Sequence record: OM386662.1
Reading direction: 5' to 3' (one strand)
Length of the DNA stretch: 64,000 nucleotides
Source: Escherichia phage vB_EcoM_ESCO47
In this document: positions 4,916-49,270 of the stretch, piece by piece
Numbering within the stretch: the first letter of the stretch is position 1
How the letters are laid out: every line of letters begins with the position of its first letter
Translations under genes and position numbers: made by a program
Notes under the pieces: generated by a model
What the model saw: the letters and a program-made list of their open reading frames with translations, nothing else
What the model was told of the DNA's origin: nothing
Database searches by the model: none

Positions 4916-4933
4916 GGGAGACCGAAGTCTCCC
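4916..4933 (-). terminator. UUCG-tetraloop hairpin terminator after gene 35
   Basis: GGGAGAC-UUCG-GUCUCCC on the minus strand followed by AUUUUUG. Confidence 0.5.
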
Positions 4934-13207: not shown

Positions 13208-13229
13208 GGGAGACTTCGGTCTCCCTTTT
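13208..13229 (+). terminator. Rho-independent terminator after gene 32
   Basis: GGGAGAC-UUCG-GUCUCCC followed by UUUU. Confidence 0.7.
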
Positions 13230-13313: not shown

Positions 13314-13706
13314 ATGGAAATCGGAAAATCTTATATCATTAACCCTTTATTTAAAGACGACTTTGTTCAAGAAGCACCGCACAATAACGCTAAGATGTTA
13401 AAATTGATTGAACTCCATGGGCCCAGTTTTGTTGTAAACGGAATGGAACCTGATTATGATAGCGATACGCTAAACGTAGTAAGTGTAACTATGGAAGACG
13501 GTACTGTATGTTCTGCCGGCGGTGAAATTGAAACTTATTTTGAGATTTATTACGATGAGTTCAAATACTTTACTGAGGTAGATTTAGTAAAGCCTCAACC
13601 TACTAACAAAGGTATAGCTTTAGGTGTAACAAAAATCCATTGTATCGTAGATGAAACCAATGTCGACGAAGTCATCGAACTTTTGCAAAAAACTTTTAAA
13701 AAGTAG
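13314..13706 (+). CDS. Hypothetical early protein (frd.x-type position)
   Basis: 130-aa ORF preceded by an early promoter (13256..13284) and SD GAGGAAA; no recognisable motif. Confidence 0.6.
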   Translation: MEIGKSYIINPLFKDDFVQEAPHNNAKMLKLIELHGPSFVVNGMEPDYDSDTLNVVSVTMEDGTVCSAGGEIETYFEIYYDEFKYFTEVDLVKPQPTNKGIALGVTKIHCIVDETNVDEVIELLQKTFKK

Positions 13707-13769
13707 TTTATAACAAGATAGGGCTATGTTATAGTAGCCCTATCTAATAAAAGTGAAGAGGAGAATAAA

Positions 13770-15449
<1,680 letters not shown>

Positions 15450-15704
15450 ATGATTTTACGTTTTATTAATTCATATGGCACCACAATTTTTGAAATAAAA
15501 AATCCTACCGAACTAGATATCCCTTCACCGAATAGTGAAATCACAGTTAAAGGTGAACGATTCATTTGTTATTCACACGAACGAATTTATGAATATCGCG
15601 AATTTTGTGGTGGTTACGGTATGGAAAAAGAACCATTGGTTTATTTCGATATCACGGTCTTGACACCTAAAGAATACAAAGAAATTATTGCTGAGGATAA
15701 TTAA
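15450..15704 (+). CDS. Hypothetical small protein
   Basis: 84-aa ORF starting immediately after the td stop (TAAATG). Confidence 0.5.
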   Translation: MILRFINSYGTTIFEIKNPTELDIPSPNSEITVKGERFICYSHERIYEYREFCGGYGMEKEPLVYFDITVLTPKEYKEIIAEDN

Positions 15705-15728
15705 CGCTTCAGTTTAAAAGTGTATAAT
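15703..15728 (+). promoter_or_regulatory. Putative middle promoter upstream of nrdA (MotA-box-like aaCGCTTCA plus TATAAT)
   Basis: MotA-like box 15703-15711 (one mismatch to TGCTT), 11-12 nt spacer, TATAAT 15723-15728. Confidence 0.45.
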
Positions 15729-15791
15729 AAATTAACGGGATAAATACTATCCCGTTTGGAGTAATGATTACCAACCTATGCTGAGGAATAT

Positions 15792-18047
15792 ATGCAAGTA
15801 ACTAAGAGCAGTGGTGTATCCCAAAATTTTGATGCACAGAAAATTATTCAAGTCTTAACTTGGCAATGTGAAGGAACACAAATTGACCCATATGAATTGT
15901 ACGAAGAAATTAAGACCCATCTTGTCGACGGGATGAGCACCAAAGATATCCAGAAGATTTGTATTAAAGTTGCAGCTAACTCGATTTCTGTCGAAGAACC
16001 TGATTATCAGTATGTCGCTGCCAAAGGGCTAATGTTTGCACTTCGTAAAGATGTATATGGGCAGTTTGAACCGCCTGCTTTTATCGACCATATTTCTTAT
16101 TGTGTTAATGAAGGCAAATATGATCCTGAGTTGTTGTCTAGATATTCTGCAGAAGAAATCATTTATCTTGATTCTCGGATTAAACATGAGCGAGATTTTG
16201 ATCTGACTTATGCTGGTGCTATGCAGCTTAAAGAAAAATACCTGGTTAAAGATAAAACAACTGGTAAGATTTATGAAACTCCACAGTTTGCTATCATGGC
16301 TATCGGTATGGCCTTACATCAAGACGAAACTCATGACCGTTTGAAACATATTATTCGTTTTTATGATGCCGTTTCTACTCATCAAGTTTCATTGCCTACT
16401 CCAATTATGGCAGGTGCTCGTACTCCGACTAGACAGTTTTCCAGCTGTGTAGTTATTGAATCCGGTGATTCGTTGAAGTCTATTAACAAAACGTCAGCAT
16501 CAATTATCGAATATATTTCCAAACGAGCTGGTATTGGTATTAACGTTGGTATGCTTCGCGCTGAAGGTTCTAAAATTGGCATGGGTGAAGTGCGTCATAC
16601 AGGTGTTATTCCGTTCTGGAAACATTTCCAAACAGCAGTAAAATCTTGTTCTCAAGGTGGTATTCGTGGTGGTGCTGCAACCGCATATTATCCGATGTGG
16701 CATTTGGAAGTAGAGAACCTGTTAGTTCTTAAAAATAACAAAGGTGTTGACGAAAACCGTATCCGTCATATGGACTATGGAATTCAGATTAATGACCTTA
16801 TGATGGAACGCCTTGGTAAAAATGATTATATTACTTTATTTAGCCCTCACGAAATGTCCGGCGAATTGTATTACTCGTTCTTTGAAGACCAAGATAAGTT
16901 CCGTGAGCTTTATGAAAAAGCAGAAAAAGACCCGGCAATCAGAAAGAAACGAATCAAAGCATTAGAACTTTTTGAATTGTTTATGACTGAACGTTCAGGT
17001 ACTGCTCGAATTTATCCACAGTTTGTTGATAACACGAATAACTACACTCCGTTTATTCGTGAAAAAGCTCCAATTCGTCAGAGTAACTTATGTTGTGAAA
17101 TCGCTATTCCGACTAATGATGTTAACAGTCCTGACGCTGAAATTGGTTTATGCACGTTATCTGCTTTTGTATTAGATAAATTTGATTGGCAAGACCAAGA
17201 TAAAATTAATGAACTTGCTGAAGTACAAGTACGTGCACTTGATAACCTGTTAGACTATCAAGATTATCCGGTTCCAGAAGCTTTAAAAGCTAAAAAGCGT
17301 CGAAATCTCGGTGTCGGTGTTACTAACTATGCAGCTTGGTTAGCTTCTAACTTTGCCTCATATGAAGATGCTAACGATTTGACCCACGAATTATTTGAGA
17401 GATTACAGTATGGACTCATTAAAGCTTCAATCAAGTTGGCCAAAGAAAAAGGACCTTGCGAGTATTATTCAGACACTAAATGGTCTCGAGGCGAATTACC
17501 TATCGACTGGTACAATAAAAAGATTGACCAAATCGCAGCTCCAAAATACGTTTGTGACTGGTCGGGGCTACGTGAAGACCTTAAGCTCTTTGGCATTCGC
17601 AACAGCACATTATCAGCTCTTATGCCATGTGAATCAAGCAGCCAGGTTTCCAACTCTACAAACGGTATCGAGCCTCCACGTGGTCCGGTAAGTATTAAAG
17701 AATCTAAAGAAGGTAATTTCCGCCAGGTAGTTCCTAATATCGAACACAACATTGGTCTTTATGACTACGCCTGGAAACTTGCTAAGAAAGGTAATAAACC
17801 TTATTTGACTCAAGTTGCTATTATGTTGAAATGGGTATGTCAATCGGCTTCAGCCAATACGTACTACGACCCAGAGAATTACGAGAAAGGTAAAGTGCCA
17901 ATGTCTGTAATGCTTGACGATTTGCTTTACTTCTGGTACTTCGGCGGTAAAAACCTCTACTATCATAATACTCGCGATGGTTCTGGTACTGACGACTATG
18001 AACTAGAAACTCCAAAAGTTGATGATTGTTCAGCTTGTAAGCTTTAA
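15792..18047 (+). CDS. nrdA: Ribonucleotide reductase large subunit
   Basis: 751-aa ORF; class I RNR alpha-type sequence with C-terminal CSAC motif region (...DDCSACKL); size close to T4 NrdA. Confidence 0.95.
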   Translation: MQVTKSSGVSQNFDAQKIIQVLTWQCEGTQIDPYELYEEIKTHLVDGMSTKDIQKICIKVAANSISVEEPDYQYVAAKGLMFALRKDVYGQFEPPAFIDHISYCVNEGKYDPELLSRYSAEEIIYLDSRIKHERDFDLTYAGAMQLKEKYLVKDKTTGKIYETPQFAIMAIGMALHQDETHDRLKHIIRFYDAVSTHQVSLPTPIMAGARTPTRQFSSCVVIESGDSLKSINKTSASIIEYISKRAGIGINVGMLRAEGSKIGMGEVRHTGVIPFWKHFQTAVKSCSQGGIRGGAATAYYPMWHLEVENLLVLKNNKGVDENRIRHMDYGIQINDLMMERLGKNDYITLFSPHEMSGELYYSFFEDQDKFRELYEKAEKDPAIRKKRIKALELFELFMTERSGTARIYPQFVDNTNNYTPFIREKAPIRQSNLCCEIAIPTNDVNSPDAEIGLCTLSAFVLDKFDWQDQDKINELAEVQVRALDNLLDYQDYPVPEALKAKKRRNLGVGVTNYAAWLASNFASYEDANDLTHELFERLQYGLIKASIKLAKEKGPCEYYSDTKWSRGELPIDWYNKKIDQIAAPKYVCDWSGLREDLKLFGIRNSTLSALMPCESSSQVSNSTNGIEPPRGPVSIKESKEGNFRQVVPNIEHNIGLYDYAWKLAKKGNKPYLTQVAIMLKWVCQSASANTYYDPENYEKGKVPMSVMLDDLLYFWYFGGKNLYYHNTRDGSGTDDYELETPKVDDCSACKL

Positions 18048-18098
18048 GAATTTTAATTATAATTGACTCATGGATGAGTCACTATTGAGAGAATATAA

Positions 18099-19277
18099 AT
18101 GAGTACAGTTTTTAATACACAACAAGTTGATGTTTTGAACGAACCTATGTTCTTCGGTTCAGGTCTCGGTCTTGCACGTTACGATATTCAACGACATAAA
18201 GTTTTTGAAGAGCTTATCGAAAAGCAGCTCTCGTTCTTTTGGCGTCCCGAGGAAGTAAACTTGATGTTGGATTCAGCCCAGTTTAATAAGCTTCCACAGT
18301 TCCAACAGGACATCTTTACCAACAACCTTAAGTATCAATCATTATTAGATTCTATCCAAGGCAGAGCACCATCTGCGGTACTTATGTCATTGCTTTCAGA
18401 CCCTTCATTAGATACATGGGTCGCTACATGGACTTTCAGTGAAACTATTCACTCTCGTTCATATACTCATATTATGCGAAATCTTTATACAGATCCATCG
18501 AAAGTATTTGATGAGATTGTATTAGATGACGCAATTATGAAGCGTGCCGAATCTATCGGACGATATTATGATGATGTTCTGGTTAAAACTCGAGCTTGGG
18601 AAAATTCTAAAGAATTTGTAGAACAAGCTAAAGAATCTCCTGATGCCGACCTTCGTTTAAACCAAGCTATTAAACAAGAGTCTGAAGCTAAACGAGACCT
18701 AATGAAATCTCTTTATCTTTGTTTGCATGTCATCAATGCATTGGAAGCTATTCGTTTTTACGTGTCTTTTGCTTGTACTTTCAACTTCCATAAGAATATG
18801 GAAATTATGGAAGGCAATGCGAAGATTATGAAGTTCATTGCTCGTGATGAACAGCTCCACCTCAAGGGCACTCAATATATTATTCGTGCTTTACAAGACG
18901 GTGAAGACGGTGATGAATGGGTCAAAATTGCTCAAGAGTGTGAACAAGAAGCAGTTGATATTTTCATGGAAGTTAACGCTCAAGAAAAAGAATGGGCTGA
19001 ACACTTGTTTAAAGATGGTGCTCTTCCAGGCCTAAATGTTAAAATCCTAAGTGAATTTGTAGATTATCTAACCGTGTCTCGTATGCGTAGTTGCGGTCTA
19101 CCATGTCCTCTTAAAGACATATCAACTCGTCATCCTATTCCATGGATTCGTGAGTATTTGAACTCTGATTTGGTTCAAGCTGCACCACAAGAAGTTGAGA
19201 TCAGTTCTTATCTTGTCGCTCAAATTGATAATGACGTCAACCAAGATGTAATAAATTCATACAAAAAATATTTCTAA
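18099..19277 (+). CDS. nrdB: Ribonucleotide reductase small subunit (uninterrupted, no intron)
   Basis: 392-aa continuous ORF; R2-type sequence (radical-site region ...VSFACTFNFHKNMEIMEGNAKIMKFIARDEQLHL...). Confidence 0.95.
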   Translation: MSTVFNTQQVDVLNEPMFFGSGLGLARYDIQRHKVFEELIEKQLSFFWRPEEVNLMLDSAQFNKLPQFQQDIFTNNLKYQSLLDSIQGRAPSAVLMSLLSDPSLDTWVATWTFSETIHSRSYTHIMRNLYTDPSKVFDEIVLDDAIMKRAESIGRYYDDVLVKTRAWENSKEFVEQAKESPDADLRLNQAIKQESEAKRDLMKSLYLCLHVINALEAIRFYVSFACTFNFHKNMEIMEGNAKIMKFIARDEQLHLKGTQYIIRALQDGEDGDEWVKIAQECEQEAVDIFMEVNAQEKEWAEHLFKDGALPGLNVKILSEFVDYLTVSRMRSCGLPCPLKDISTRHPIPWIREYLNSDLVQAAPQEVEISSYLVAQIDNDVNQDVINSYKKYF

Positions 19278-19715: not shown

Positions 19716-19744
19716 TTTACATACCACATGGACTGTGGTATAAT
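19715..19744 (+). promoter_or_regulatory. Early promoter (GTTTAC-N18-TATAAT) upstream of rnlA
   Basis: gtttacataccacatggactgtggtataat. Confidence 0.6.
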
Positions 19745-27331: not shown

Positions 27332-27336
27332 TTTTA

Positions 27337-27358
27337 GGGAGACTTCGGTCTCCCTTTT
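27337..27358 (+). terminator. Rho-independent terminator after the small basic ORF
   Basis: Same GGGAGAC-UUCG-GUCUCCC hairpin followed by UUUU. Confidence 0.65.
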
Positions 27359-31237: not shown

Positions 31238-31425
31238 TGAAAGCTTATTTAGAAACAGTAGTTGTCGCCAATAAAGACGGTAGTGATGTTTCTGCCTCTT
31301 GTTCCCAAATTGTATTAGATTTTCCTAATAACGATTCCTATCATATTTTTATGGACAATTTTGATAAGTACGAAAAAGGCCCTAATTTTGAAGTTTATCG
31401 TACTTTGCTCCCGATTGTGGATTAA
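31237..31425 (+). CDS. Hypothetical small protein
   Basis: ATG at 31237 overlapping ligase stop; 62 aa; followed by UUCG terminator. Confidence 0.45.
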   Translation: MKAYLETVVVANKDGSDVSASCSQIVLDFPNNDSYHIFMDNFDKYEKGPNFEVYRTLLPIVD

Positions 31426-49236: not shown

Positions 49237-49246
49237 AACCAAAAAT

Positions 49247-49270
49247 GGGAGACCGAAGTCTCCCAAAAAT
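49247..49270 (-). terminator. UUCG-tetraloop hairpin terminator after gene 23
   Basis: GGGAGAC-UUCG-GUCUCCC on the minus strand followed by AUUUUUGG. Confidence 0.6.

Follow-up and report, generated by a model that had tools for sequence, protein, structure and literature searches.

A stem-loop at the predicted start of the nrdA middle transcript in an RB69-like phage

The spacer upstream of nrdA in Escherichia phage vB_EcoM_ESCO47 (sequence record OM386662.1) carries a stable, conserved hairpin whose first paired bases coincide with the predicted start of a MotA-type middle promoter. The hairpin is real and not a chance match. As to its role, we tentatively favor, with a confidence that stops somewhat short of even, the view that it is a 5′-terminal stabilizing stem-loop of the nrdA (and nrdB) middle message. 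This view and the main alternative, in which the hairpin acts as a terminator, are compatible with each other. All positions given below are those of the 64,000-nt stretch of DNA analyzed here (the window).

Judged by its sequence, the window is that of an RB69-like T4-type phage (Mosigvirus), distinct from RB69 itself. Its td-nrdA.2-nrdA segment (14589-16400) has 93.7% DNA identity to RB69 and 92 to 93% to many Mosigvirus genomes besides. Every gene between 10 and 26 kb of the window lies on the + strand, and the nrdA.2 and nrdA genes are separated by an 87-nt spacer that contains both the promoter and the hairpin, the nrdA.2 stop codon overlapping the MotA-box-like element. The features of the locus are as follows.

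13984-14592, + strand: frd
14589-15449, + strand: td, 286 aa, no intron
15450-15704, + strand: nrdA.2, 84 aa (Pfam DUF5496, E = 1e-12), annotated as nrdA.2 in RB69
15702-15711, + strand: MotA-box-like element TAACGCTTCA, with one mismatch to the consensus (C for T), from a pattern scan
15723-15728, + strand: -10 hexamer TATAAT, 11 nt downstream of the MotA box
15734-15736, + strand: predicted transcription start, A15735 ± 1, from the position of the -10
15734-15756, + strand: hairpin, with 5′ arm AACGGGATA (15734-15742), loop AATAC (15743-15747), and 3′ arm TATCCCGTT (15748-15756)
15757-15761, + strand: UGGAG, abutting the stem and making a UUU run together with U15755 and U15756
15762-15782, + strand: variable spacer, predicted to be unstructured, holding a 6-codon mini-ORF (ATG at 15764 to TGA at 15784)
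15783-15788, + strand: nrdA Shine-Dalgarno sequence (SD) GAGGAA, from the sequence and the ORF list
15792-15794, + strand: nrdA start codon ATG, from the same sources
15792-18047, + strand: nrdA, class Ia ribonucleotide reductase large subunit, 751 aa (Pfam ATP-cone, Ribonuc_red_lgN, and Ribonuc_red_lgC)
18099-19277, + strand: nrdB

A td group I intron and an endonuclease gene are present in the relatives PTE-Eco05, AV118, G2469, JM17, and 348Ecol098PP. The promoter-hairpin cassette is flanked by two copies of a 9-bp direct repeat, TGCTGAGGA, at 15689-15697 and 15779-15787. Both copies are SD-like, the left one being a relic SD at the nrdA.2 end and the right one the nrdA SD. The bracketing repeat is imperfect in RB69 (TGCTAAGAA / TACTGAGGA), and in phage mar005P1 an analogous repeat, AGAGGACAT, brackets nrdA.1.

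A previous reading of the DNA from sequence alone (here, the sequence-only reading) had described a 7-bp stem, CGGGATA (15736-15742) and TATCCCG (15748-15754) around the loop AATAC (15743-15747), followed by TTTGG. The letters match the sequence exactly, but the stem had been understated: two more A-T pairs extend it to a perfect 9 bp (15734-15756). Folded alone (15728-15762), the hairpin reaches -11.7 kcal/mol compared to a shuffle mean of -4.6 (z = -3.16), with 2 of 200 shuffles folding as well, and its pair probabilities are about 1.0 in all RNA contexts tried, short and long. Perfect hairpins of at least 9 bp with at least 4 G-C pairs occur five times in the 64-kb window versus 0.4 times expected from dinucleotide shuffles, and a chance hairpin in one given 87-nt spacer is thus unlikely; the 7-bp class is less exceptional (27 observed versus 9.1 expected in the window). 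A search of 15400-16000 with the Rfam 15 covariance models gave no match at the hairpin and two chance-level snoRNA hits elsewhere in that segment.

The sequence-only reading had also set the hairpin downstream of a MotA-type promoter and upstream of the nrdA SD. This anatomy is right, and the equivalent RB69 promoter had been predicted independently (Pm:143278). MotA-dependent middle promoters have a MotA box of consensus (a/t)(a/t)(a/t)TGCTT(t/c)A, a spacing of 12 ± 1, and a -10 element numbered -12TAtaaT-7 (PMC2988021). At the nrdA locus the box (with its one mismatch), the spacing, and an excellent -10 are all in place, and RB69 has motA and asiA orthologues (PMC1524935). Because the last T of the -10 hexamer is position -7, the predicted +1 falls on A15735, the second base of the stem, which begins 5 nt past the -10 and ends 26 nt before the nrdA SD. 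The start being predicted on the first paired bases, the middle transcript would therefore open with a blunt 5′-terminal stem-loop. In folding calculations the hairpin formed whether +1 was set at 15734, 15735, or 15736, with pair probabilities of 0.9 to 1.0 and zero 5′ overhang. A search of the literature on start sites, transcript ends, or transcriptomes of RB69 and other Mosigvirus phages found nothing usable. The window has 28 MotA-like sites altogether, and none of the others has a comparable +1 hairpin, which rules out a general rule that middle promoters carry such hairpins.

Both elements had already been predicted in RB69. The additional files of Nolan et al. (2006, Virol J 3:30; PMC1524935) list a middle promoter, Pm:143278, at 143239-143278 on the minus strand (HMM score, 17.4), and a TransTerm terminator, "nrdA<--nrdA.2," at 143221-143239 (7 bp, confidence 100). 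In a gap-free alignment these map exactly onto the two elements of the window, RB69 143239-143278 corresponding to 15697-15736 and 143221-143239 to 15736-15754, which puts the last base of the RB69 promoter model at the counterpart of 15736. The RB69 promoter and hairpin are direct orthologues, identical in sequence to those of the window. Both 2006 entries are computational predictions, given in supplementary tables with no discussion of the terminator beginning at the promoter's +1. The element described here is accordingly an orthologue of catalogued RB69 features and belongs to well-known kinds of phage regulatory hairpin; what is new is confined to its location at the predicted +1 and the finding that the boundary of conservation is set by the stem and not by the U tract.

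On the reading that we favor, RNA polymerase at TATAAT (15723-15728) would start at A15735 (±1), presumably in a MotA/AsiA-dependent manner in this phage also, and the first 21 to 23 transcribed nucleotides would fold into an 8- to 9-bp hairpin without an unpaired 5′ overhang. A base-paired 5′ end is poorly attacked by RppH and by RNase E entering in a 5′-end-dependent manner, and the hairpin would therefore lengthen the life of the middle transcript while leaving the ribosome-binding site (RBS), 26 nt downstream, free. In read-through RNA from td/nrdA.2, the same hairpin may add some termination or a 3′ barrier. There is a bacterial precedent in the 5′-terminal stem-loops that stabilize the E. 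coli ompA and papA mRNAs (Emory 1992, Bouvet and Belasco 1992, and Arnold 1998, as cited in PMC3997798), and T4 mRNAs are degraded mainly by RNase E (PMC3014915). What the ompA and papA leaders share with ours is a stable hairpin at the extreme 5′ end, an unstructured leader, and a free RBS, as well as a decay machinery (RNase E, RppH) that is used on T4-type phage mRNA; they differ in showing no sequence similarity to the window hairpin, and the 5′ end in the window is a predicted one. The position of +1 on the second stem base, the agreement with the end of the RB69 promoter model, and the full pairing without an overhang all argue for a stabilizing role. Against it, a start 3 nt or more further downstream would weaken the stem, and the other MotA-type promoters of the window lack a comparable +1 hairpin.

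The distribution of the element bears on whether the stem itself is under selection. A BLAST search covering 50,697 phage records found the promoter-plus-hairpin module (15700-15760) in 127 of them, all Mosigvirus-type, with one copy per genome and no second locus; the single copy rules out a repeated element family. A metagenome scan added three Mosigvirus contigs, and an IMG/VR search with NrdA.2 yielded one locus only. The 61-nt module is identical in 115 of the 127 records, and the distinct isolate variants examined all fall in its promoter part, with none in the 23-nt hairpin. They comprise a G-to-A change in the MotA box, an additional T in the spacer, a G-to-T change just before the -10, TATAAT to TGTAAT in UGJNEcP2, and, in AV109, an A added after the -10 and before the stem. 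The 35 nt from the hairpin to the ATG (15757-15791) contain at least seven variable columns, and in NHEP29 the mini-ORF is frameshifted. Among isolates, variable columns thus number 0 of 23 in the hairpin versus 12 of 69 in the flanks (Fisher p = 0.024), a contrast that is not significant once a metagenomic variant is counted (p = 0.11). The latter, A15740G in contig NFYZ01010019, changes an A-U pair into G-U in + strand RNA and gives a C-A mismatch on the minus strand. The only stem variants are this G-U-compatible change and one in the Dhakavirus analogue described below, the stem being invariant in the isolates examined. No compensatory double change was seen among the variants examined, and selection on the stem at the RNA level is for this reason suggested but short of demonstrated. 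Both the sparing of the hairpin in isolates and the strand specificity of A15740G are consistent with the stabilizer reading, which is weakened by the absence of compensatory change and by the loss of significance with the metagenomic variant.

As a side observation, the UGJNEcP2 change (equivalent of 15724) removes the critical -11 A of the promoter and leaves the hairpin in place, so that the nrdA middle promoter, by this comparison, is probably dispensable.

The same data could be read in terms of history rather than function, the hairpin being a neutral relic of a past gene replacement (loss of nrdA.1 or of an endonuclease gene) that has been conserved through a young lineage. The complete identity of 115 of the 127 modules would fit, as would the nonsignificant contrast that includes the metagenomic variant and the dispensability of the hairpin in other genera. 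We nevertheless regard a relic as quite unlikely, given that chance would supply 0.4 perfect 9-bp stems with four G-C pairs per 64 kb, that these genomes differ by 4 to 7% in the adjoining spacer and coding DNA, and that three genera place stem-loops independently at the nrdA middle promoter.

The hairpin leaves translation initiation largely unaffected in the predicted structures. The mean unpaired probability of the SD is 0.76 in promoter-initiated RNA versus 0.69 in read-through RNA, and that of the AUG is 0.82 to 0.92, the higher value being that of the promoter-initiated RNA. With the stem 26 nt away from the SD and accessibility about equal in both RNAs, there is neither RBS masking nor a transcript-specific switch; and the stem includes neither the SD nor the start codon, as it would in an RBS-sequestering hairpin of the I-TevI/soc/e type. 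The free SD and AUG are in keeping with a stabilizing 5′ stem-loop. That the hairpin instead masks the nrdA RBS, or serves as a terminator for antisense transcription, is extremely improbable, even though a scan flagged the minus strand as terminator-like (tail AATTTATTAT) and the minimum free energy structure of a 101-nt fragment pairs 15707-15713 with 15780-15786, SD included. The 10- to 26-kb region is without minus-strand genes, A15740G is incompatible with pairing in minus-strand RNA, and SD accessibility is similar in the two transcripts. The long-range pairing with the SD (seven pairs including two G-U) would mask only the read-through RNA, and was rejected because the 101-nt fold is not significant (z = -1.57) and the pairing is broken in EP32B. 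A leader peptide encoded by the 6-codon ORF behind GGAG was likewise rejected, in view of its SD spacing of 2 nt, its nonsynonymous changes, and the NHEP29 frameshift.

The sequence-only reading had proposed that the hairpin could attenuate or stabilize the nrdA transcript. Both functions survive our tests, but on the side of attenuation the hairpin is a poor terminator by U-tract criteria. Its stem is of the kind found in intrinsic terminators (7 to 9 bp, 4 G-C, -8.6 to -11.7 kcal/mol, 30 nt past the nrdA.2 stop), whereas its tail, UUUGGAGU, or UUGAUACU in endonuclease-bearing relatives, falls below the approximately five or more U in 8 nt of a terminator U tract. A terminator scan requiring 5 T in 8 did not flag the hairpin on the + strand. 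On a d'Aubenton-Carafa-type score, which is uncalibrated with modern energies and was used only for ranking, the hairpin obtained nT = 2.57 and d = -26 (-36 for the endonuclease variant); this is below every clear terminator of the window (13208, 27336, 33927, 37721, 47550, and 49246; d = -0.3 to +59) and near a UUCG hairpin at 31424 with a TTTGG tail (d = -22). Weak termination is possible and strong termination unlikely. Since the stem lies past the promoter start, any termination would also hit the promoter's own transcripts.

It is accordingly possible, if doubtful, that the hairpin is a weak intrinsic terminator/attenuator or a 3′-end barrier for frd-td-nrdA.2 read-through. nrdA would then be partly insulated from early transcription and supplied by the middle promoter, while the upstream messages would gain a protective 3′ hairpin. 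The position and makeup of the element are appropriate: it lies on the coding strand 30 nt after the nrdA.2 stop, with a G+C-rich base (CCCG), a UUU after it, and an A-rich run before it, and the similar-scoring hairpin at 31424 resembles a T4-type terminator. The TransTerm call at confidence 100 on the identical RB69 hairpin supports this reading and counts against the stabilizer. There is also a functional parallel in the T4 mobE terminator, a 9-nt stem with a short poly(U) that terminates 30 to 50% of transcripts (Wilson and Edgell 2009; PMC2790892). That hairpin resembles ours in its approximately 9-nt stem, short U tract, nrdA-nrdB location, and association with a homing-endonuclease insertion site; it differs in lying inside mobE, downstream of nrdA, in having a 4-nt loop instead of 5 nt, and in that its function has been proven experimentally, termination by the window hairpin, which precedes nrdA, being only predicted. 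The stem-loops of promoter-stem-loop (PeSL) cassettes have been shown to terminate transcription as well (PMC2839356). Against termination are the low terminator rank and the U run of just three residues, down to two in an endonuclease variant that still keeps the stem, features that in turn speak for the stabilizer. The geometry, in which the promoter's own transcripts are equally hit, is unlike that of the PeSL, Dhakavirus, and Gaprivervirus elements. The UGJNEcP2 promoter, with a mutated -10 and an intact hairpin, suggests that read-through suffices for nrdA, although this inference is weak.

Comparison of close relatives points to the nrdA.2/nrdA junction as a site of gene exchange. The spacer cassette is found there in 115 records, nrdA.1 in mar005P1, and an extra ORF plus nrdA.1 in AV117. 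In mar005P1 (LR027390), as in T4, nrdA.1 (DUF4326) overlaps nrdA, leaving no spacer and no hairpin. The two mar005P1 records differ in this respect, LR027390.1 having the overlapping nrdA.1 and OZ035759.1 the spacer cassette with a MotA-box G-to-A change. In about 12 further records (AV118, AV109, and others), an I-TevI-like homing-endonuclease gene is inserted immediately after T15756. These relatives retain 15705-15756 at 98 to 100% identity, with only UU after the stem. As the insertion abuts the last stem base, the conserved unit is the promoter plus the stem and not the stem plus a U tract, which agrees with a stabilizing function. So does the extra A of AV109 ahead of the stem: it puts the predicted +1 on the first stem base, and the 5′ end would therefore still be blunt. 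The inserted endonuclease has 211 aa, with NUMOD3 and an I-TevI DNA-binding domain (AV118 L003, 1636-2294; AV109 L008, 1254-1912), and its gene overlaps an altered nrdA 5′ end, MYNFKVVKNSGVSQ..., that replaces MQVTKSSGVSQ....

An exchange junction of this type raises the alternative that the element is a promoter-stem-loop cassette of the PeSL/PmSL type, its role being that of a DNA-level recombination or module-exchange junction with any RNA effect incidental. PeSL and PmSL elements (Arbiol et al. 2010, PMC2839356; Comeau et al. 2014, PMC4122927) are intergenic units of approximately 90 bp made up, like ours, of a promoter, stem-loop, SD, and start codon and situated at insertion/deletion/replacement junctions between close relatives; the promoter in our case is of the MotA type, as in the PmSL elements described. 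The swap-point behavior of the junction among relatives, the existence of Gaprivervirus versions both with and without a cassette, and the presence of composites of PeSL layout at 13707-13745 and 19716-19744 of the window (see below) would fit such a role. There are also clear differences. The PeSL/PmSL stem-loop is upstream of or within the promoter (between -35 and -10 or overlapping the -10) and here it is downstream of the -10, at +1. PeSLs form a repeated family in a hyperplastic region, whereas our module is single copy in a core nucleotide-metabolism cluster and so gives PeSL-type recombination no repeats to act on. The sole stem variant retains pairing, as G-U, in + strand RNA only, and a cassette would explain the location yet not a stem conserved better than its flanks. 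For these reasons we consider a purely DNA-level role unlikely.

Other genera of T4-type phages have their own solutions at this position. In Dhakavirus (Bp7, UGJNEcP3, and ABTNLsp5) the promoter GCTTAA-12-TAGAAT has its -10 enclosed by a 9-bp stem, AGGTTCTAT/ATAGAACCT, and in Gaprivervirus (SP18 and TH54) GCTTCA-11-TATTAT lies within the stem GGGTCATG/CATGACCC, with tail CATTTTAT; the Gapriverviruses VR26, PSD2001, and EAWsc9 are without such a cassette. In T4, JD18 (Jiaodavirus), Pet-CM3-4 (Karamvirus), and LC53 (Winklervirus), the -10 is inside the nrdA.1-like upstream sequence and there is no hairpin. The Dhakavirus (Bp7) and Gaprivervirus (SP18) elements share with the Mosigvirus one the genomic position, a promoter consisting of a MotA box plus -10, and a stem of 8 to 9 bp. 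However, they are nonhomologous to it in sequence and enclose the -10, and as such do not form part of the middle transcript; Mosigvirus alone has its entire stem past the start. By comparison of these sequences, stem-loops at the nrdA middle promoter have arisen independently at least three times. The enclosed -10 of Dhakavirus and Gaprivervirus, which suggests a role either on DNA or in read-through RNA, argues against the stabilizer reading and, since read-through RNA is the only transcript in which these stem-loops can fold and UUUU follows that of Gaprivervirus, for the terminator. The hairpin device must in any case be dispensable, because T4 and the Jiaodavirus, Karamvirus, and Winklervirus phages drive nrdA without a hairpin from a promoter inside nrdA.1, which also speaks against an important stabilizing role. 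In Dhakavirus and some Gapriverviruses (SP18 and TH54), a late-promoter motif, TATAAATA, is found approximately 10 nt upstream of the nrdA MotA box (in Bp7, at 60-67 of the 130-nt upstream segment), and a short hydrophobic ORF (MKIQIICTLFLVIMVGLNFIL) is present between td and nrdA.

The GGAG that follows the stem (15758-15761) is a RegB-type motif, opening the way to an extension of the stabilizer reading in which hairpin and GGAG together form a detachable 5′ cap whose removal by RegB would set how long the message lasts. Until RegB cut inside GGAG, the nrdA middle transcript would be shielded by the stem; the resulting 5′-OH would be converted by the phage polynucleotide kinase (PNK) into an RNase E-sensitive monophosphate, and on read-through RNA the cut would leave a td-nrdA.2 message with a protective 3′ hairpin. 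The UGGAG is conserved, with its GGAG unchanged, in the sampled relatives without the endonuclease gene and replaced in the carriers; RB69 regB is functional, if divergent; and the succession of RegB, PNK, and RNase E/G decay has been documented in T4 (PMC3014915). Most middle transcripts are reported as nontargets of RegB, and we hold this extension to be very unlikely.

If the 5′-terminal reading is true, the ribonucleotide reductase operon of RB69-type phages would have a built-in protection against RNase E that T4 is without, and promoter and stabilizer would travel together in a cassette of approximately 55 bp, persisting through gene swaps and the insertion of an endonuclease gene at one junction. 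The 2006 terminator annotation would then need correcting. In practice, the hairpin is a small lineage-specific tuning element of a nonessential operon and opens no new question.

Several other hairpins of the window are associated with promoters. The nrdB middle promoter at 18041-18081 (GCTTTA, 11 nt, TATAAT; RB69 counterpart, Pm:140943) is directly followed by a 7-bp hairpin, TGACTCA/TGAGTCA (18064-18081); as the predicted start is inside this hairpin, it could form only on nrdA read-through RNA. At 19716-19744 there is an early-type promoter (TTTACA, 17 nt, TATAAT, with a TG) whose -35 and -10 flank an 8-bp hairpin, ATACCACA/TGTGGTAT (19721-19741); AATTTTTAAA comes next, and the layout is that of the PeSL cassettes of RB49 and phi1. 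An 11- to 12-bp hairpin at 13707-13745, AGATAGGGCTA(T)/(G)TAGCCCTATCT, overlaps a promoter-like TTTATA, 17 nt, TATAGT and sits between an ORF ending at 13706 and another starting at 13770; at -18.8 kcal/mol it is the most stable short hairpin in that part of the window, and it is without a U tail. Lastly, the terminator hairpin GGGAGAC-UUCG-GUCUCCC occurs four times on both strands, at 4916-4933 (-), 13208-13225 (+), 27336-27355 (+), and 49246-49265 (-).
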